From: a virus
Virus record (IMG/VR): IMGVR_UViG_3300022680_000058
Location: 64,001-128,000 of that record
Reading direction: 5' to 3' (one strand)
Length of the DNA: 64,000 bases
The position numbers and the translations under genes were made by a program. Of the stretch, positions 1-58,410 are shown piece after piece (the stretch's first letter is position 1; the number at the start of each line of letters is the position of its first letter). The notes beneath the pieces are model-generated. The model was not told the DNA's origin, ran no database searches, and saw nothing but the letters and a program-made list of their open reading frames with translations.

Positions 1-300
1 CTGTCCCTCAAAGAGTTCCACCATATCGTCTTTGAGCTGTGGCCAGAGGGACGCACCAGTCTCACCGAGGAAATATGGATCTGTCAGGAACTCTCTGATA
101 CTGACCGGAGCTACACGATACTCGATGTCGGCGATGGACCTGTAACCCTTCGTCTCGCCAACAGCCAGCTTGTTGTAGATTTCAAGGACAGCTTCTCGCT
201 CCTCTGGTGGGAGCCTTTCAATATCAGCAAGGAGGAGATCTTCCTCTTCTTCGTCAGTCCTGGTGGATCTGACCCTGCCATTCACATCAAGGATAGGCAC
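1..300 (-). CDS. terL: Terminase large subunit, N-terminal part (runs off the window edge)
   Basis: Hand translation from GTG at 300: MPILDVNGRV...YRVAPVSIREFLTDPYFLGETGASLWPQLKDDMVELF. The PVSIxEFxxDPYxLG...LWP stretch resembles the segment preceding Walker A in large-phage terminases; the ATPase motifs lie outside the window. Confidence 0.7.
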   Translation of the reverse strand, partial: MPILDVNGRVRSTRTDEEEEDLLLADIERLPPEEREAVLEIYNKLAVGETKGYRSIADIEYRVAPVSIREFLTDPYFLGETGASLWPQLKDDMVELFEGQ

Positions 301-40096: not shown

Positions 40097-40540
40097 TCAC
40101 AATACAGCATCGAACCGCTTCTGTGCCGCCGGTCGGATGTCTTTCTTCGGCGTCGGCTTCCACCGCCCGAGGTCCATCTTGTTGACGCTCTTCTTGGCAG
40201 CCTTCTTCGCTCCCCTTCGACCGAGGACGACAGTCACCATGAGACCTTTGACGTTCCCATTCTTGAGCCAGTCCAACGGTCTGAAGTAGAGGATCTCATC
40301 AGAGAACTCCAAGGCATAGTACCAATCCTGGCCACTCCACGATGACAATGGTCCAGGCATCGACGATGAGCTTGCAGGCTTTGACTTCGACTTCTCCTTC
40401 TTGCCCATCACCTGGCCAGGAGACGGGACTGTATAGCCCCCGATCATCGCCTCAGCCATCGTCTCGGACTCACCATCCAAGAGATTCCCGATCCCCTCCA
40501 GCAACACGCCATTCACTGAACGAACATCCATCTCCATCAC
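40097..40540 (-). CDS. Leader-family protein (putative capsid-internal)
   Basis: MDVRSVNGVLLEGIGNLLDGESETMAE, then YTVPSPGQ. Confidence 0.6.
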   Translation of the reverse strand: MMEMDVRSVNGVLLEGIGNLLDGESETMAEAMIGGYTVPSPGQVMGKKEKSKSKPASSSSMPGPLSSWSGQDWYYALEFSDEILYFRPLDWLKNGNVKGLMVTVVLGRRGAKKAAKKSVNKMDLGRWKPTPKKDIRPAAQKRFDAVL

Positions 40541-40875
40541 CTCAAAATCTTTCCGAGCCGAACCCTACTCCTCGTAGCTCCCTCAATGTACCTAACCACA
40601 TCAGGGAGTGTGTCGAGGTGTCGGCTTCGACGCCCAGTCTTCACTTGCGTCGCGACCCAGAACCGCTTCGTGGCATTCGCCGTGTCGCCCTTCTTGAGCT
40701 CGACAAACCACCTGTTGTCGCTGTCCCTGTAGACAGCCCCTCCATTGTGCCGATGGAGAACAATCTCATCTGTCCTAATAGGCTCGACGTACAACTCCTG
40801 GAGCACCTCAAGATCACCACCTTGAAGGCCAACGATCGCCTCGCCGAGCACAAGATTCACAGCATTGATATCCAT
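40537..40875 (-). CDS. Leader-family protein
   Basis: MDINAVNLVLGEAIVGLQGGDLEVLQE. Confidence 0.6.
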   Translation of the reverse strand: MDINAVNLVLGEAIVGLQGGDLEVLQELYVEPIRTDEIVLHRHNGGAVYRDSDNRWFVELKKGDTANATKRFWVATQVKTGRRSRHLDTLPDVVRYIEGATRSRVRLGKILR

Positions 40876-40889
40876 CAAGCGCCTCTTTC

Positions 40890-41399
40890 TCAGAGCTGCT
40901 CAGCAAGGATGTGAAGCTGTGGGAGGTCACCATCTACACCAAGCGTTCCAGTGATCACCTGGAACTGGATCGATGTCACCTCGTTGAGGACCGTGTTCCT
41001 CCCGAAGGCCTTATAGGTCCCGCTCGACGACTCTCGATAGTAGAGGTTGATATCCGAATTCGCGATTGGAGTGTTTGAACCACCACCAACATGGCCAACG
41101 AGCGCCCCGATCTCCCCGAGGGTCCCATCGATCCGAACCGGGGTCGAGAAGTTGGCCATCTCCCACTGGATAGTCCCTGAGCTCCCACTGACGACCGTGA
41201 TCGAGTTGTTCGCCTCACTGACTGTCGCGTCAGTGGAGGACTCGACGTTTTCAGCCGTGAGGCTCACTCTTTCAAGCTTCGGAAGCGCCGAGATTCGAGT
41301 CTTCAGCGCAGACTTGAAAGTGGTATCGAGGTTCGAGTATGCATCGACAGCATCCGACAGGATCTGCTGAAACATTGAAAACGTCGTTTGGATTGCCAT
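40890..41399 (-). CDS. Hypothetical beta-rich protein, possibly structural
   Basis: Ser/Thr/Gly-rich beta-strand composition; start at MAIQTT. Confidence 0.5.
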   Translation of the reverse strand: MAIQTTFSMFQQILSDAVDAYSNLDTTFKSALKTRISALPKLERVSLTAENVESSTDATVSEANNSITVVSGSSGTIQWEMANFSTPVRIDGTLGEIGALVGHVGGGSNTPIANSDINLYYRESSSGTYKAFGRNTVLNEVTSIQFQVITGTLGVDGDLPQLHILAEQL

Positions 41400-41404
41400 G
41401 CTGA

Positions 41405-41863
41405 TCACCTTTCTATTGAGACAGGTCTCGTCTTGTCCGCCCCAGAAGGCATCGACGGCTTCTGCTCTGGTTTGAGTATAACACCTGTCTTGGCGCCAAA
41501 CTTTTTGTTCCACGCCGCGAGAGTCATCGCCCGCCTATACTCATCACCTGGAGCGCCCGTGATCCTCTTCGGTCCGTCTGACTTCACCCGCTTGAACTGT
41601 ACCGGGTAGACCGTCCCGAGCGCCACCTCAATGACCGTGTTCTCGTCTTTCAACGACTCAGCGGCGAGCTCTGTCATTGTGAAGATATCTCGATGGAGAG
41701 CATCCTGTCGCCAGTTCCGCTTTGCCGTCCCGTACCCAATGAGAACAGGCGCCTCTTCCATGCGGAAAATCCACACAGTGAGCTCAGACCCCTTACGCCA
41801 CCTCACAATGACCTCTCCAGGCGCCATCAAAGCTTCGGATAGCCTCTGAGACAAGGAGAGCAT
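41405..41863 (-). CDS. Hypothetical protein with a short LSxxLxEA leader
   Basis: MLSLSQRLSEAL. Confidence 0.55.
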   Translation of the reverse strand: MLSLSQRLSEALMAPGEVIVRWRKGSELTVWIFRMEEAPVLIGYGTAKRNWRQDALHRDIFTMTELAAESLKDENTVIEVALGTVYPVQFKRVKSDGPKRITGAPGDEYRRAMTLAAWNKKFGAKTGVILKPEQKPSMPSGADKTRPVSIER

Positions 41864-42889
41864 CTACGCCGCCAGGAGCCCTTTCAGGGACGCTCTGAGG
41901 GCTTCGAACATCTTGAGCTGTCGCTTGTCGACCTTCTTCTTTGGGACAGCGACACCCGCCGGAACATGTGGGAACTCTCCTCTCTGAAGATACTTTTCCA
42001 TCATGTCAATCCACATCGAGACAGGCCCGAACGCTGGCGACACATAGGCGTTGTACCTATTCATATCGAACTCTCTTCTGACGACAGCCAACAAATCCTG
42101 AAGATCATCACGATCATCACTCTGCATATCCGGCTTCATCACCCGAATGACTGTAGCAAGAGAAGGTTCGTAGTCCTTTCGCTGCAAGGGAGAGTAACTT
42201 CTGTCGCTCGACCCCTTCGCTTCACTCCAAAGCAGCCCCTTCAACAGGGCGATGAACGTGAAAACTCTGGCGTCTGGGATCTGAGGTCCGGTATTCGGTG
42301 ACTTCGGTGCTCTCGGAGGAGGACCAACGATCCGGTCATAGACCGTCGGAGCGCCGCTCTTTCGAGATGCTCTCTTTTTCGGCTCCTTTACCGTCGCCTT
42401 CTTCCCAGGACCGCCGCCCTTCTGCTTCGACACAGCCGCTCTAGCAGCATCGATGAGGTCTCGGATCTTTCTCGCCGCCAGGACATCACCAAACGTGATA
42501 TCCGTTCTCTGCCTTGCCTGATCAAGACGCTTCGCGTGAGCCCTTGCCACCTTGAGCCACTCTCTCAACCTGGAAAGGACTTCTTTCCTGTACTTCGGAA
42601 GCATCTGCTCAGTCTGCTTTGGAAGCTTCTGAAGGAGCTCCCTAACGACACTCGCCTCTGGGGTTCGATTCGGGTCGGTGAGCTTCCCATGACCAGCAAC
42701 AAGAGGCTCCAGAGCACTCTCGATGGGGTCCATGACCTCATCATCCGTCGCCCCGACAGCCATCCCATACTTCCGGTGCATTTGCATCGGAGAGAGAACT
42801 TTGAACCTCTCTGTCAGAGCTTCGATCTCCTCGATCTGAAAAGCCGCGATCGACTGTTCGAGAACCAAATTGACCATCCTGATGTCCAT
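41864..42889 (-). CDS. Leader-family protein
   Basis: MDIRMVNLVLEQSIAAFQIEEIEALTE, then FKVLSPMQMHRK. Confidence 0.65.
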   Translation of the reverse strand: MDIRMVNLVLEQSIAAFQIEEIEALTERFKVLSPMQMHRKYGMAVGATDDEVMDPIESALEPLVAGHGKLTDPNRTPEASVVRELLQKLPKQTEQMLPKYRKEVLSRLREWLKVARAHAKRLDQARQRTDITFGDVLAARKIRDLIDAARAAVSKQKGGGPGKKATVKEPKKRASRKSGAPTVYDRIVGPPPRAPKSPNTGPQIPDARVFTFIALLKGLLWSEAKGSSDRSYSPLQRKDYEPSLATVIRVMKPDMQSDDRDDLQDLLAVVRREFDMNRYNAYVSPAFGPVSMWIDMMEKYLQRGEFPHVPAGVAVPKKKVDKRQLKMFEALRASLKGLLAA

Positions 42890-42924
42890 CCTACACCTGC
42901 CCTCCGAAAACCAACGTACCACAA

Positions 42925-44877
42925 TCATCGATGGGCAGGACGCCCCACCGACATCTTCCCTGGGTCCCTGACAAATCCTGTGTCCCAATCTTGAGCCCCT
43001 GGATGGAGCGGAATCCCCTTCAATGAGTCACCATCATCAGACACCAATGACCCATCGAGTAGCTGTCTCGCCTTCCACATGGGAATGATCTTGATGGATT
43101 TCACAGAAATTTCTTTCTTATGCCACAAGACTTCTTCCGGATACGCCCTGTCTGGGAATTCACTCGTTGTGAACAAGACTGCCACGTCACGCTTCTTGGC
43201 CCTTCCCAGCGGAGAATTCTGAACCGAGGGAACATACACCCCTCCAACAGCTACGGCATAGACCGCTGGCGCCGCATATTCGGACTGCCAGACCTTCTTC
43301 TTGTCCACCATCCCGAGTGCACCCTTCGAGTCAGTGAAGTGGATATACTGAAGCTTCGACGCTCTCATACGACCAGTCTTCGCCTCTCGCTCCGAGAGCA
43401 ACGCTTCAACGAGCTGCGACGACAAGCCTGGTTTCTCTACACCTTCAAGCTTGATCGTCGGGAAAAGAAGCTTGAGCATCCCCTTGATTTCTGGAAGCAA
43501 CGTCCTCGGACCAAACCCCACAAGGTTACCCAAGACCTCACAGAACGCTTCCTCCTCATTTGTCGCTGCATACCCACTGATCGGAAGTGCTGCCACAGAG
43601 ATCCAAGGCGTACCACCGGCATTCAAATACTCTCGAATCGCCGTGATATTTCCCAGCTCATCAACACGCCTTGGATACCTGTAACGAAGTGTCCGAAGTC
43701 TAAGGTATGTGACAGGGTCCTCTTTTTCGAGCCGCTTCTCGAACTCTGAGTCTGTCTCGCCGATCTTCACTCTTCCAACGAGCTCTTTCAGATCGAGGTC
43801 AACCTTCTTTCTCAAGAACTCCCGCCACCTCATTTTCATCTTCTGAGAGAAAAATGTATTGTAGATGTGGTGTCCCATCTCATGGGCGAGATACTGAGCA
43901 GTCTGATCCGCGCTCTTATCCATCCCCCAAAAAGTCACAAGGACATGATCCCCCTCATACGTCGCTGCATAAAATCTTCCAGCCTCATCAGATGACGAAA
44001 AGTCCAACTTGAATGGGATTTTGTATCTCAAAAGCCACGGGAACACCCTTTGAGCTCTCTTTTTGTAAAGAGCAAGACCACGCTCGAACCTTCCCATAAG
44101 TTCCCTCTTGTGAGAGTCATTATGGTCATACCCAACGAGCTGCAACGAGAACCCGTCCTTACTGATATTCTGCGGCGCTTTCTCCTCAGGATGCTTGATC
44201 GGGAGCACCTCCCCACCGCCACCGTAGAGACTCGTGCTCTCAGTCCATTCAATAAACTCCTTCAGCCACTTCCATGCCGCCCGAGAACGCCTCTCAGCCT
44301 GTCCCTGCCACTTCTTCCTTCCCCTCTGGAAATCGTAATACTGCCCACTTTTTTCCGGCGTCACGCTTGTCCCACGGTACTTGTGCTGAGCCAGCTCCAA
44401 CCTTTCGAGTGGAAATGTGTTAAGTACGAAATTGAAATCCCACAGCGGCTTTTGGTCATCACGATAGTGACGCCCCCACAGCTCATTCGTTTTTCGCTTC
44501 CACACTTCAAGCCGAGCCTCGCTCCTCATCATCTGATCAATCATCGGCTTGATCTGTTTGATAATGCTGAGATAGTGATCCCTCCAACGATTCACCCCCT
44601 CGCTGACCTTCAAAGCGTCATCATAATTCTTGATGTTCCTGTAGCTCCTCATGATGGTGAGAAACTCTTTTCGGAGACGCTTGACCACGAACTCAGTCAA
44701 CCCTCCGCTATGACCAGCAACTTTTGACGCGAGCCCCGCTGGAGAAAGGACATGGTAAGTCTTCCCAGCATAACCAGTCAGTGCCGCCTCGATGAGCGAT
44801 TCGAGTTCACCATGCTGTAAAACATCTATGGCCTCAATGAGCTCAAAGTTTCTTTGCCTGAGTTCCTCGATAACCAT
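42925..44877 (-). CDS. Leader-family protein with a zincin metallopeptidase and a C-terminal ADP-ribosyltransferase-like domain
   Basis: HEMGH...SGYAATNEEEAFCE; C-terminal YIHFT..S..VY..EE. Confidence 0.65.
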   Translation of the reverse strand: MVIEELRQRNFELIEAIDVLQHGELESLIEAALTGYAGKTYHVLSPAGLASKVAGHSGGLTEFVVKRLRKEFLTIMRSYRNIKNYDDALKVSEGVNRWRDHYLSIIKQIKPMIDQMMRSEARLEVWKRKTNELWGRHYRDDQKPLWDFNFVLNTFPLERLELAQHKYRGTSVTPEKSGQYYDFQRGRKKWQGQAERRSRAAWKWLKEFIEWTESTSLYGGGGEVLPIKHPEEKAPQNISKDGFSLQLVGYDHNDSHKRELMGRFERGLALYKKRAQRVFPWLLRYKIPFKLDFSSSDEAGRFYAATYEGDHVLVTFWGMDKSADQTAQYLAHEMGHHIYNTFFSQKMKMRWREFLRKKVDLDLKELVGRVKIGETDSEFEKRLEKEDPVTYLRLRTLRYRYPRRVDELGNITAIREYLNAGGTPWISVAALPISGYAATNEEEAFCEVLGNLVGFGPRTLLPEIKGMLKLLFPTIKLEGVEKPGLSSQLVEALLSEREAKTGRMRASKLQYIHFTDSKGALGMVDKKKVWQSEYAAPAVYAVAVGGVYVPSVQNSPLGRAKKRDVAVLFTTSEFPDRAYPEEVLWHKKEISVKSIKIIPMWKARQLLDGSLVSDDGDSLKGIPLHPGAQDWDTGFVRDPGKMSVGRPAHR

Positions 44878-44878
44878 C

Positions 44879-46318
44879 CTACGCCTCCCTCAACGCACCA
44901 ATGAGCTGATCAGACAGCGACTCCAATCGCCGCTTCTTCCCCATAAACTGCTCGAACCGCTGCCTCTGCTCACGATTGAGCTTGATCCTACTGAACTGCT
45001 GCCCCACATACCCGCTAAAGAGCTCTGCGAACTCCTCTGCATCATCAGTTCCACCGTATTTCGACGGGAACTTCACCTTCCCAAACCACTCCTTGAATCG
45101 ACCACGATCATCATGGCTCATGAACTTGAACCAATACCTATGGCCCAATTCATGAATAATAATGTCGGCATCCGTATCATTGCTGTAGATGTCCACGCCA
45201 TCAAGAACACGAGAATACGCCGCTGCTGCCTTTATGGACGTTTTGAAAACAGCCTCATACGATCCAGGCGGAAGCTTGATGAAATCCCCATACCACAGAC
45301 GCGATAGACCTCGACGCCTCAAAAGCGCCTCAACCTTCCTGAGTTCAGAAACAAGCTTGTTCCTGTGTGTCGGTGACATCCCCTTGGTGCTTGCCAGGAA
45401 AGCACGATCGAATCTCTTCGCCTCACCACCAGAGACCCTCATCTGACTTGTCATCTTCTCTTTGCGAGGGTCCTGAGCAATATCCTTGAACACCAGGTTC
45501 ACACGACCAATATGGACAACATCCTCAACGGGGACGCCAGGGCGGGTCCCATGCTCTGATGGAGCATATCTCCCACCAGTATCACCCTTAGCTTTCACGA
45601 GCCTTGAAAGCGACCTCAGGAGCCGCCCAGAGATAGCCTTCGTAGCCTCCTCAACCCCTTCATCGGCCTTCGCAGGGATACTCCTCAACATCCTGGCATA
45701 TTCATCCACAGACCTGAACGTGTTGTAGAACACCGGCTCCCCAGAGAATGAAAACTGCCCCTCAGGATGAGACTCGTTCTTGTAGAACGTGATCGCCCCG
45801 ATCGCGTCCTTGATCGCCTCCTCAGCCTTCTCGATCTCCTCCACAGTCTTCTTCACTGGCCCAAACTTCTCTTTTCGGTCCTCGTCCGCTTCCTTCTCAA
45901 TTTTGACGAGCATGTCATGCATCTTTGGGTCTTCAGACTTCAGCTTTTTCTTGTAAGCTGGAGTCATCCCCGAGACCTTTCGGAAAGCCTCACGGCTCCA
46001 GAGACCCTTCGTCCAATACAGATCCGTCTTGAGCTGCTCGATGGCATTCTTGACCGAGGTCAGATACTCGATAGCATCGTCGGCAGCCTTGGCGTACTCA
46101 TCCCATGTCCCGACCTCCTTGACATCCTTTGGCGGTCTCCCTGGGTAATCCTTGACCTTGTCGGCGATACCCTTCCACCACTTCCGAATCCCAGAGATCC
46201 ACTCATCGTCAATCTCATGTCTCTTCCTTGGATTTACCCTGCGATGCATTTGTTGTGGGGTAGGGACCTTGTACGAGCCCGCCATCGCCGCTTCGAGCAA
46301 AACATCGGAAAGTCTCAT
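44879..46318 (-). CDS. Putative virion protein with a C-terminal zincin metallopeptidase
   Basis: MRLSDVLLEAA..YKVPTPQQMHRR; HELGH...SKYGGTDDAEEFAELF. Confidence 0.65.
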   Translation of the reverse strand: MRLSDVLLEAAMAGSYKVPTPQQMHRRVNPRKRHEIDDEWISGIRKWWKGIADKVKDYPGRPPKDVKEVGTWDEYAKAADDAIEYLTSVKNAIEQLKTDLYWTKGLWSREAFRKVSGMTPAYKKKLKSEDPKMHDMLVKIEKEADEDRKEKFGPVKKTVEEIEKAEEAIKDAIGAITFYKNESHPEGQFSFSGEPVFYNTFRSVDEYARMLRSIPAKADEGVEEATKAISGRLLRSLSRLVKAKGDTGGRYAPSEHGTRPGVPVEDVVHIGRVNLVFKDIAQDPRKEKMTSQMRVSGGEAKRFDRAFLASTKGMSPTHRNKLVSELRKVEALLRRRGLSRLWYGDFIKLPPGSYEAVFKTSIKAAAAYSRVLDGVDIYSNDTDADIIIHELGHRYWFKFMSHDDRGRFKEWFGKVKFPSKYGGTDDAEEFAELFSGYVGQQFSRIKLNREQRQRFEQFMGKKRRLESLSDQLIGALREA

Positions 46319-46423: not shown

Positions 46424-46460
46424 AAAGAGAAAGGGCCACCATAGTCTCACCATGGCAGCC
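46424..46460 (-). terminator. Terminator after tmRNA
   Basis: GGCTGCCATGG-TGAGA-CTATGGTGGCC followed by CTTTCTCTTT. Confidence 0.65.
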
Positions 46461-46478
46461 CTAACGTATTGAAAACAT

Positions 46479-55507: not shown

Positions 55508-56149
55508 ATGGATATCCAAGAAGTCAACGCAATCTTGAACCAGGCGATCGAAGGTCTTCAGTTCGCCGAGATCGAAGCCCTGGCAGAGTTCACCATTCCA
55601 TCGCCCGCAGAAATGCACAGACGCTCCGGAATGCCCCTTCCCAAGCCCGAGGTCCCGACACCGGCAGAGATGCACAAGCGCTCTGGAATGCCCCTCCCTG
55701 GCAGCGTCAGAGTGACCAAAGGGAGTCAGCATCCAAAGACAGCTTACCAGTCCGTAGCGTCATCCAAGAAAACGAAGCCGACCCACTTCTACAATCCACA
55801 AGGCAACCTCATGGACCCCGACAAGGGGAGTCGAGCCAACGTCAAGAAAGCTGAAGAGCTCGCCCAGGTCATCCAAGCCGCCACAGATGAGGTCTACAAA
55901 GATTTCGGCATCGAGGGATACTCTCGAAGCAAGAGCGGTGGACTCGTCACCGTGAATCCCAAGAAGAAGTTCATCGCAATCGATATCGGGAGCTCAGGAA
56001 AGCTCCTCGTTGGTCCGAACAACTTCGTATGGGGCATCAAGGGCTACGGAGTCCGCCACCCTCAGAAGTTCTATGGAACTGTCGACGAAATGATCCGGAA
56101 TGGATTCTCGATCACCATCGGCGGGACGCCCTACATCATCAAGGCCTAA
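55508..56149 (+). CDS. Leader-family protein (distant copy on the opposite strand)
   Basis: MDIQEVNAILNQAIEGLQFAEIEALAE, then two P(S/T)PAEMHxRSGMPLP repeats. Confidence 0.65.
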   Translation: MDIQEVNAILNQAIEGLQFAEIEALAEFTIPSPAEMHRRSGMPLPKPEVPTPAEMHKRSGMPLPGSVRVTKGSQHPKTAYQSVASSKKTKPTHFYNPQGNLMDPDKGSRANVKKAEELAQVIQAATDEVYKDFGIEGYSRSKSGGLVTVNPKKKFIAIDIGSSGKLLVGPNNFVWGIKGYGVRHPQKFYGTVDEMIRNGFSITIGGTPYIIKA

Positions 56150-56365: not shown

Positions 56366-56881
56366 TCAAAAAGGCCATGTAGTTGGATCGAAAAACTCGA
56401 CAGTGAGCTCAGCACTTCTGGCCCTTTTGATACAATCCCAAGTACCACCCTTCTCTACCTCATCCCAGACGGACAAAAGAACCCCTCCAGGGGTCTCCGA
56501 CGCCCAGTCAACCATGTCCTGGTTCCTCTGGGTCATGCACCACGGCCCAGGCCACGGAGCATCACAAGTATACCTCTCCTCCCGAGCATGAGACAAAAGA
56601 CGCCTGTGAAGGTCTCTGGACTCTGCTGGCCACCTCTTGTCCTGGTCATGACACGGAAGAAAAGCAATGAAGGGGACATGGTTGTGATAGCACCTCGCCG
56701 CGAAAAACTGATCCACGCCAAGCGCCATCCCGGTTCCAGCAATCAAGTCGCCCTGTTTCTGGTAGTGCTTCAGGCGCTCCTCCATCCAATCTCGAATCGC
56801 AATGTTCCGTTCGTCGTCCCAGTCATATCCTCCCGGTAACCGGGTCGGCCTGTGACCTGTCACAATGACTCTTAAATCCAT
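56366..56881 (-). CDS. SLOG/YspA-like (DUF1273) protein
   Basis: VTGHRP, GMALGVDQ, QRNQDMVD and GGTWDC. Confidence 0.85.
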   Translation of the reverse strand: MDLRVIVTGHRPTRLPGGYDWDDERNIAIRDWMEERLKHYQKQGDLIAGTGMALGVDQFFAARCYHNHVPFIAFLPCHDQDKRWPAESRDLHRRLLSHAREERYTCDAPWPGPWCMTQRNQDMVDWASETPGGVLLSVWDEVEKGGTWDCIKRARSAELTVEFFDPTTWPF

Positions 56882-57081
56882 GAAATCTATAGTAACCACA
56901 TAGCATCCACTTGCCATATGAAAAACCAATCCTATACTATTATTCAAATCTAGTGGTTCGAGGTATTGGCCCCCTGGCGCCATCCAGGCGGGCCATCTTT
57001 GTGAACAAAGTCTCTTTTACTCTTGACAGGCTATTGACAAACCTAAATCAGTCCACACCTTGCTTGTGGAGGTCAAGAGAT

Positions 57082-58410
57082 ATGAGAACTCTTCCGATCA
57101 TCATCGCCATGCTCGCCCTTCTGGCGGCATGTGACGCAGGCCCAGAACGAAGAACCGATGACACAGATCCACCATTGGATGGTGACGTCGAACAGCCAGA
57201 TGGAGACGCCGACGGTGACGCCGAACCAACCGACGGTGACGGAGATGTCGACGGTGACATCGACGGTGACAGTGACGTCGATGGAGATGTCGACGGTGAC
57301 GCCGATGGTGACACAGACGACTGCTCCGAAAGCATCGAACTCTGTGATGGCATCGACAACGACTGTGACGGACTCATCGACGAAGATGAAGCATCCGACG
57401 AATGCACTGCCGGAAACATGTGTATCGACGGAGCATGTGAAACCTCACAGATTACCCACATCACAACCGGCGGGTCACACAACTGCGCCCTGAGACACAA
57501 CGGCAGAATCGCTTGCTGGGGTGGTCCTGGTCGAGCTCTCGGGTATGGCTCCGAAGAACCATCAACACAACCGGTGACAGTCGCCGAGATTTCAAACGCT
57601 GTCGAAATCTCAGCCGGTGGAATCGACGGTGGCGGTCACTCCTGCGCCATCCTTGACACCGACGAAATCTGGTGCTGGGGTGACAACGACCAAGGCCAAC
57701 TCGGGACATCTTCGAGCTCCAGAACGAGCACGCCAACGCTCGCAACAAGGACCAGAGCAGAGAGCATCTCCTCGGGGTACAAGCACAACTGTGCAATCTC
57801 AGACGGAATCCCGCTCTGCTGGGGACAGGGATTCTCCATGAGCCCGATCCCGCTCCCGACGATCTATGCAATCAGCCTCGAATCGTTCGGAAGCCTGAGC
57901 TGTGTCAACCAAGGGTCGTCAGATACAGATTGCTTCGATGGCGTCGGGTCCCCAGATTACTCCTACGACATCACAGGTATCGACATCGCCGTCGGATCGA
58001 ACCACGTCTGTGTGGCCACAGGAGCCCCCTCTTACGGCGTCGAGTGTGCTGGTGACAACACCTATGGCCAGACTTCCACGGGTGGCTACAGCCTCCCCAG
58101 GGTCGCCGAGGTCACCGCTGGGGACAACCACTCATGTTTCCTCTCGACGAACGGGCACGTCTACTGCTGGGGAAGGAACCACAGAGGTCAGCTTGGGATC
58201 GGAAACACCACGGACACCTCTGTTCCAACCCAAGTCTATGTCGGGTTTGACCCGCTGTCAGGGGTCATTCAGATTGACGCTGGGAACAATCACACCTGCG
58301 CCCTGACGAACATGGGCGAGGTTCTGTGCTGGGGGGACAACAGCAACGGTCAGCTCGGAAACCTTCACTCTGGTGACTATGAGACCCTTCCGTCTCCCGT
58401 CGACCTCTAA
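57082..58410 (+). CDS. Lipoprotein with a DGD-rich linker, a MopE-like Cys/Asp motif and an RCC1/BLIP-II beta-propeller
   Basis: Lipobox LAAC; ELCDGIDNDCDGLIDE; repeated G..H.C....G...CWG.N..GQLG. Confidence 0.88.
   Translation: MRTLPIIIAMLALLAACDAGPERRTDDTDPPLDGDVEQPDGDADGDAEPTDGDGDVDGDIDGDSDVDGDVDGDADGDTDDCSESIELCDGIDNDCDGLIDEDEASDECTAGNMCIDGACETSQITHITTGGSHNCALRHNGRIACWGGPGRALGYGSEEPSTQPVTVAEISNAVEISAGGIDGGGHSCAILDTDEIWCWGDNDQGQLGTSSSSRTSTPTLATRTRAESISSGYKHNCAISDGIPLCWGQGFSMSPIPLPTIYAISLESFGSLSCVNQGSSDTDCFDGVGSPDYSYDITGIDIAVGSNHVCVATGAPSYGVECAGDNTYGQTSTGGYSLPRVAEVTAGDNHSCFLSTNGHVYCWGRNHRGQLGIGNTTDTSVPTQVYVGFDPLSGVIQIDAGNNHTCALTNMGEVLCWGDNSNGQLGNLHSGDYETLPSPVDL

Follow-up and report, generated by a model that had tools for sequence, protein, structure and literature searches.

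Diverse internal proteins that share only a capsid-targeting sequence (CTS) are an established principle of T-even phages (PMC3012670). In T4, the CTS is carried by IPI, IPII, IPIII and Alt and is removed by the prohead protease gp21 (PMC9026906, PMC3012670), which cuts after L/I-x-E; a CTS of ten residues suffices for loading (PMC9026906). In phiKZ, 201phi2-1 and SPN3US, a gp21 homologue removes N-terminal propeptides from many head proteins by cutting after Glu, and these proteins are ejected into the host (PMC9026906, PMC5694885). Here we analyze a 64,000-nucleotide window of the virus record IMGVR_UViG_3300022680_000058 (bases 64001-128000 of a single 147,979-bp contig, plainly of a tailed phage), in which genes of a cluster at 40097-46318, together with gene 55508, encode proteins headed by one of two N-terminal leaders, a long one of 27 residues or a short one of 9-10 residues. 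These leaders probably mark a T4-like CTS/internal-protein system, with prohead targeting and L-x-E trimming of proteins that would be injected with the DNA.

As in T4, the phage encodes a gp21-family protease, the tag stands at the N-terminus of otherwise unrelated basic proteins, and its last three residues are L/I-x-E, with a small residue next. The short leader, MRLSxxLxE|A (the bar marks the proposed cut), has the same length and layout as T4 MKTYQEFIAE|A, taken from the ipII and ipIII N-termini in the T4 record, ten residues being too few for a significant score. The T4 genes ipI, ipII and ipIII are dispersed outside the head module, as are the leader genes of the window; Alt, whose gene also lies outside, is likewise a large enzyme cargo. 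The two systems differ in other respects. The second, highly conserved 27-residue leader has no T4 counterpart, and there are about 16 tagged genes per genome here, whereas the T4 review names IPI, IPII, IPIII and Alt (PMC9026906). The phage system further differs in a conserved proline motif past the proposed cut site, in the reuse of leaders as internal junctions and in its zincin peptidase cargo.

The phiKZ-type inner-body and ejection proteins have an S/A-x-E motif and no single conserved leader, in contrast to the L/M at P3 in this phage. This residue, together with head genes much closer to the T4 type (gp23/gp20/gp21), sets the present system apart from the processed inner-body proteins of phiKZ.

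Two leaders on mostly unrelated proteins

The long leader is an acidic 27-residue unit, MDIERVNxVLxKAIxGLQExEIEx(L/M)xE|A. About 16 genes of the phage bear a leader (ten the long form, five or six the short). Seven of them lie in the window and nine outside it. Most of these nine stand in tandem in the head module, with the capsid genes on one side and the tail genes on the other. The leader genes of the window, referred to below as cargo genes, have their true starts at 40531, 40875, 42889, 44877, 46318 and 41863 on the minus strand and at 55508 on the plus strand, each with a Shine-Dalgarno-like sequence upstream. The cluster and gene 55508 comprise the following features, in window coordinates.

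44879..46318, minus strand: cargo gene 44879, 479 aa, with the short leader MRLSDVLLE|A at 46292-46318; the leader is followed by SYKVPTP and a basic run, a helical bundle (residues 32-248) and a zincin domain (residues ~257-467)
45140-45154, minus strand: HELGH of 44879, in its M34/lethal-factor-type zincin domain
44882-44917, minus strand: leader-like C-terminal tail of 44879, LSDQLIGALREA
42925..44877, minus strand: cargo gene 42925, 650 aa, with a diverged long leader ending LIE30|A at 44788-44877; the leader is followed by a YHVLSP motif and a zincin core (residues ~58-480) with HEMGH at 43870-43884
43390-43425, minus strand: internal leader-derived junction of 42925, LSSQLVEALLSE|R
42928-43389, minus strand: C-terminal domain of 42925, ~150 aa, possibly of ADP-ribosyltransferase fold
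41864..42889, minus strand: cargo gene 41864, 341 aa, with a canonical long leader at 42809-42889 ending LTE27|R, then FKVLSPMQMHRKYGM and a basic body
41405..41863, minus strand: cargo gene 41405, 152 aa, with the short leader MLSLSQRLSE|A at 41834-41863; the pattern match falls at the true start
40890..41399, minus strand: gene 40890, acidic, 169 aa, pI 4.5; the sole leaderless gene within the cluster, outside the tagged set
40537..40875, minus strand: cargo gene 40537, 112 aa, with a long leader at 40795-40875 ending LQE27|L and without the VPxP motif
40097..40531, minus strand: cargo gene 40097, 144 aa, with a long leader at 40451-40531 ending MAE27|A, then GYTVPSP and a Lys/Ser-rich run
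55508..56149, plus strand: cargo gene 55508, 213 aa, with a long leader at 55508-55588 ending LAE27|F; downstream of a UvrD helicase gene
55589-55699, plus strand: tandem repeat of 55508, two copies of (I/V)P(S/T)PAEMH(R/K)RSGMPLP directly after the leader

The sharing of these leaders is far above chance. The strict pattern MD[IV]xx[VI]NxxL is found in seven genes genome-wide, and a hidden Markov model (HMM) built from these seven matches recovered six to seven further genes, all with the match at the N-terminus and on the coding strand, at E-values of 3e-12, 2e-11, 1.6e-5 (42925), 5.8e-5 (44879), 3.9e-4, 2.5e-3 and 0.16. The best control values were 0.69 for reversed open reading frames (ORFs) and 2.1 for five shuffles. 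The best match to the leader HMM is 55508 (87 bits), with a second, partial match on its repeat. Five true gene starts carry the short motif M-x-LS-x-x-L-x-E, where ~0.16 would be expected. A sequence-only reading of this DNA had described the long leader in 40097, 40537, 41864 and 55508, a variant of it in 42925, and a shorter motif that opens 41405 and 44879 and recurs at a domain boundary of 42925; all of these were found in place.

The same reading had proposed a profile search of the genome and its relatives. A profile of 17 leaders, searched against 1.84 billion representative proteins, matched 120 clusters at E<=1e-3 and 54 at <=1e-10, and 117 of the 120 match from residue 1-6. The long leader heads these 117 distinct metagenomic protein clusters as a fixed 27-residue unit, with the logo M-D/N-I-E-R-V-N-x-V-L-x-K-A-I-x-G-L/F-Q-E-x-E-I-E-x-L/M-x-E (106 proteins). 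N7 is invariant, L/M25 is present in 87/106, E27 in 85/106 and Ala28 in 51/106. The (L/M)-x-E triplet stands at residues 25-27 in ~80% of the 106 long leaders, M being accepted alongside L; in the window genes it ends at residue 27, 30, 9 or 10. None of 107 leader proteins gave a Pfam match. The leader resembles no known domain; a match to a known non-virion domain had been named as a finding that would speak against a capsid tag.

Leader and body also differ in charge. Across the family, the median pI is 4.3 for the leader and 10.0 for the remainder, with 94% of remainders above 8.5; in the window genes the leader pI is 4.1 and that of the remainder 9.4-10.6. With the leaders removed, 105 bodies fall into at least 44 BLAST-unrelated clusters, a lower bound, since single-linkage clustering gave one cluster of 40 whose members were probably chained through leftover stretches of motif or basic sequence. 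The bodies are 42 to 650 aa long and differ in fold. The earlier claim that the bodies are unrelated holds for the other window bodies but not for 42925 and 44879, the only related pair (BLAST E 0.006; hhalign 94%, E 1e-7), which share a zincin core.

Exchange, fusion and retention of leaders

The tag is swappable, exchanged rather than inherited with its gene, because orthologous bodies bear long, short or other leaders in related phages. In the head module, the gene at genome 46113-46538 has the long leader, and its orthologues in four relatives (38-60% identity; alignment A5) have a short leader of 9-10 residues. In the body family of 42925, the long-leader form comprises 42925 itself, P0110 (intermediate leader) and P0109 (canonical leader). 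P0130 has the short leader and the motif, P0133-P0137 have M-x-LS-x-x-L-x-x-AL-T-E|R only, and in P0132 and P0140 the body stands behind ParB-like or topoisomerase-type (topoisomerase-IB) domains. L-x-E lies just ahead of the body in nearly every case, with differing leader types. The proteins of the 44879 family all start M...L-L/I-E, and the VPTP insert is found only in this phage and P0002.

These exchanges bear on plain paralogy, in which a single family would have kept a slowly evolving N-terminus while the rest diverged past recognition, without any modular tag. The tandem arrangement of the genes and the distant relationship between the 42925 and 44879 bodies favor such a descent, yet orthologous bodies at 38-67% identity bear different leader types, the bodies differ widely in length and fold, and no other pair of them is related. 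Paralogy is therefore regarded as extremely improbable.

Leaders also survive fusion. The C-terminal ~150 residues of 42925 correspond to stand-alone proteins of 156-166 residues in relatives (64-67% identity), which have a short leader at their start (e.g. MRLSRQLDGALTE|RSE). In alignment A8, this stand-alone leader falls column by column on the internal GLSSQLVEALLSE|REA of 42925, and P0150 shows the same fusion. Because it aligns with the N-terminal leader of the stand-alone homologues, the 42925 junction is the retained leader of a cargo gene fused behind the zincin gene, and so a likely internal cutting site. The 44879 tail LSDQLIGALREA is the same element as this junction, and in P0004 and P0005 the tail runs on into further domains. 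The portability that had been proposed for the tag is thus borne out, both by bodies that bear different leaders in relatives and by the leader that persists as a linker after fusion.

A T4-type head and a matching protease

The head of the phage is of the T4 type, with a gp23-family major capsid protein (MCP; PF07068, 1e-60) and a gp20 portal (9e-57). Its prohead protease is a 546-residue protein whose first ~180 residues form a Peptidase_S77/gp21 domain (60.4 bits against PF03420, cut-off 27; phrog_207, 9e-49). The protein is 32% identical to T4 gp21 and retains the GELxHP and GVSSRGxGS blocks with the catalytic His and Ser; an N-terminal L-x-E-S is also conserved between the two. The phage thus encodes its own gp21-type S77 protease to match L-x-E, for which the sequence-only reading had pointed to T4. 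At the boundary of the MCP Delta domain, L-x-E|DTLS, with the middle residue free, is kept in five relatives. Cleavage specificity is supported by this boundary, by the conserved protease and by T4 biochemistry.

From the shared, exchangeable tag and the matching protease we infer the further steps of docking, cleavage, packaging and injection. The leaders would act as capsid-targeting propeptides that dock cargo onto the prohead scaffolding core during head assembly. The gp21-type serine protease would cut after the fixed (L/M)-x-E, at residue 27 of the long leader and residue 9-10 of the short one, and the same enzyme may also cut leader-derived junctions within fused proteins. The basic mature proteins would remain associated with the DNA in the head and accompany it into the host. 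The window cluster 40097-46318 and gene 55508 would then constitute a second, dispersed cargo set that includes two zincin-type proteins, one with a possibly ADP-ribosyltransferase-like fusion. Processing of the cargo by the S77 protease is more plausible than processing by the zincin itself.

Other features of the head genes were observed. The large terminase (window 1-300; gene to genome 60995-64300) carries an intein with a LAGLIDADG domain. In the relatives L022, L013 and L016, the portal ORFs are 1341-1448 aa long with portal similarity in separated pieces, which suggests inteins or other inserts in these portals. Between L002 (genome 55255-59128) and L006/L007, the protease and three putative core/scaffold proteins are only ~50% identical and the MCP and adaptor 76-79%, which indicates far faster evolution inside the head than in its shell.

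Alternative readings of the leader

Several observations weigh against the capsid-targeting reading. The phage is uncultured and has no close cultured relative, the identity of its MCP being at most 28% to any cultured phage and 32% to an uncultured huge phage, and the T4 gp23 cut site is not conserved position for position in this MCP. A scaffold or core gene that tracks the use of long or short leaders was sought, and all relatives share the same gene set. No T4-type late promoter TATAAATA is found anywhere in the genome, and the helical hydrophobic moment of the leader is not significant (p ~0.13). To these are added the residue after the proposed cut, a conserved motif beyond it and the neighborhood of the cluster, each of which bears on an alternative.

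Only about half of the family has Ala as the P1' residue following E27, and in three genes here this residue is L, R or F. This variability, and the AlphaFold2 (AF2) prediction of the leader as one long helix, would fit an uncleaved N-terminal docking helix that is kept on the mature protein and binds, for example, the portal, an inner structure or a host target. We consider this very unlikely. E27 and L/M25 stand in a fixed register in most long leaders, the same L-x-E precedes bodies with quite different leaders, and the phage encodes a protease of the family that cuts after L/I-x-E.

The conserved N-terminal module extends beyond L-x-E. An aromatic-x-V-P-S/T-P motif in one or two copies, followed by a basic run, comes after the leader in 70/117 family members, and the block that is repeated in 55508 follows it, as xVPxPxQMH+KxGMxLP, in the 41864 family and many metagenomic relatives. 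The claim that the shared leader ends in L-x-E accordingly stands as regards the triplet and its fixed position, with the qualification that conservation continues into the proline motif and basic run. Because a conserved motif sits beyond the proposed cut, the leader may share the role of address with another element, or even be secondary to it. The acidic leader could instead be a removable masking or processing propeptide, and the retained motif and basic run the real capsid/DNA address. The frequency of the motif, its duplication in 55508, its occurrence as a clade-specific insert on the 44879 body and the charge contrast between acidic leader and basic body, which suggests masking, all favor this view. 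However, the motif is absent from 47/117 leader proteins and from gene 40537, the short-leader genes of the relatives L004/L006 mostly lack it, and the 10-residue T4 propeptide targets alone (PMC9026906). On balance, such a division of labor is considered unlikely.

The cluster is bounded by a ParB-MT-A70 gene on one side and ParB/tmRNA on the other, with genes for UvrD, a Top1 zinc-ribbon protein and YpsA nearby, and the locus is not a morphogenesis region. A non-virion regulatory, degradation or localization signal on intracellular phage proteins would explain these DNA-metabolism neighbors. However, the same leader is found on 6-8 tandem genes that directly adjoin the MCP gene on its downstream side, in this phage and in relatives; the T4 CTS genes are likewise dispersed; and the zincin cargo resembles annotated minor capsid and polyvalent virion proteins. 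There is consequently little probability in a purely intracellular signal.

Zincin-type and other cargo

The 42925 and 44879 cores are homologous and share a lethal-factor/M34-type zincin peptidase core. In the AF2 model of 44879, residues 257-467 are nearest to the lethal factor (LF) catalytic domain (Z 10.0, rmsd 4.0, 176 aa) and also resemble the Pro-Pro endopeptidases PPEP-2/3 (Z 8.7-9.1); the Foldseek probability for the fold is 0.98. The family alignment A2 shows an invariant HELGH...E.F.E.F..Y, that is, HExxH with a downstream Glu ligand. For 42925, the AF2 core has a pLDDT of 80-95, the leader forms a helix at residues 2-34, and the family alignment A4 shows an invariant AHExGH...Y..E.F.E. 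In BFVD it matches phage proteins whose annotations read peptidase, M34 endopeptidase or minor capsid component, at E 1e-6 to 4e-4 overall and 1e-6 to 2e-4 for the peptidase/M34 entries; its Foldseek matches in the PDB are weak, all of them gluzincins. PDB sequence searches with alignments A2, A4 and A8 gave no match, and Pfam and PHROG searches of all cargo proteins gave no family match (E<0.01 for the zincin pair). Because no Pfam/PHROG or PDB sequence match was obtained, the two modeled proteins are filed as fold-level relatives of zincin metallopeptidases rather than as members of a named family.

Polyvalent proteins with zincin-like MPTase domains, found in phages and conjugative elements (Iyer et al. 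2017, PMC5512222), are comparable in several respects. Their HExxH core is, as here, nearest to lethal-factor/M34 peptidases, the homologues of the present cargo are fused to ParB-like, topoisomerase-IB-type and other modules, and delivery with the DNA is proposed for both. In contrast, most modules of this phage have a gene of their own, headed by a leader of the head-protease type, and they have no Pfam MPTase or LPD match.

The C-terminal domain of 42925 is possibly ADP-ribosyltransferase-like (Tox-ART-HYD1-like), a sub-threshold lead from structure comparison. Residues ~500-616 gave TM values of 0.48-0.52 in the structure atlas to clusters with PF15633, PARP or DUF952, with feature scores of 0.86-0.88, below the 0.9 guide. 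Alignment A8 contains a His (YxHFTD), a Tyr (AVYAVAVGG) and a Glu (PEEV) that are nearly invariant or invariant and form a candidate H-Y-E/D triad. The domain had no Pfam or PDB sequence match, and the AF2 model left it unresolved.

Among the other proteins of the cluster, 40537 has a weak AP2-like DNA-binding signal (E 0.0035, below the curated cut-off), and the relatives of the 40097 body, P0026 and P0039, bear the same leader. The structure-atlas search with the 41864 body gave no usable lead. The leaderless 40890 has a weak, sub-threshold similarity to the Sputnik minor capsid protein V18/19 (E 0.013).

Distribution among relatives and genomic setting

The cluster is conserved in L044, a diverged relative with a GC content of 44%, in which ParB is followed by orthologues of 44879, 42925, 41864 and 41405 in the same order, with leaders kept and 45-57% identity. 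The 41864 orthologue (54% identity) has its leader, and that of 41405 (57%) keeps MLLSEQLRAALSE|R. Genes 40097, 40537 and 40890 are variable, since they are absent from L044. This relative came only from the metagenome scan; the IMG/VR related-locus search with 42925, 44879 and P0002 returned nothing.

Leader usage differs among phages with similar capsids. The closest relatives, L004/L006 (MCP 79%), have almost only the short leader. The long leader heads seven or eight genes in L007/L022 (MCP 77%) and a single gene in more distant relatives. The complete relative G001 (67% MCP identity) has only one weak long-leader gene, for which reason the expansion of the long leader is considered clade-specific. 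Sigma-70 and terminator scans of 39.8-47 kb performed no better than shuffles.

One strong terminator-like hairpin with a 14-bp stem is present at window 46432-46462 on the minus strand, just upstream of 44879, at the end of the non-coding DNA that separates parB from the cargo cluster.

Implications

Relative to the described systems, the new elements are the 27-residue leader, the coexistence and interchange of two leader types, the leader as an internal linker, the size of the repertoire and large zincin-type cargo far from the head genes. If the capsid-targeting reading is correct, the T4 principle, so far a matter of a few small internal proteins, widens to a large repertoire that changes fast. 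It would comprise ~16 genes in each genome and, in metagenomes, 44 or more families of bodies, including enzyme-like effectors of 480-650 residues encoded far from the head genes. The leader would then be a simple sequence flag for injected effectors, candidates for anti-defence or host-takeover functions, among the hypothetical genes of uncultured T4-like phages. The natural swaps between long and short leaders and the leader-retaining fusion show cargo evolution by module exchange.

A bolder possibility, which we regard as doubtful but conceivable, is that two separately recognized addressing channels lead into one capsid: an ancestral T4-like tag of 9-10 residues and a derived 27-residue tag, perhaps an extended short tag, that expanded in a subclade. 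Together with the proline motif, the two tags might set the copy number, position or ejection order of cargo classes, and an internal cut-here linker might let cargo genes fuse and split freely. Such a system would amount to natural plug-and-play delivery of enzymes (zincin peptidases, perhaps an ADP-ribosyltransferase) into the host.

The suggestion that the leader could be engineered as a packaging signal is not new in principle, as GFP, a nuclease and other proteins have already been loaded by means of the T4 CTS (PMC9026906, PMC3012670). The leader would supplement, not replace, this tool.

Other observations

Outside the window, bases 1-99 and 147881-147979 of the contig (G000:C1) are perfect reverse complements; judging by its length, this 99-base match is more likely a k-mer artefact of the assembler than a biological inverted terminal repeat. 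In L044, the gene after the cargo cluster (L044:14474-14893) contains an ESHFSIHTWPE-like stretch, reminiscent of S-adenosylmethionine decarboxylase proenzymes. In the window, a YpsA/SLOG-family protein (2e-08) is encoded at 56366-56983, and the adjoining gene at 56911-58410 encodes a protein of 499 aa in which an apparent signal or anchor sequence precedes RCC1-like repeats and an Asp-rich DGDxD region.

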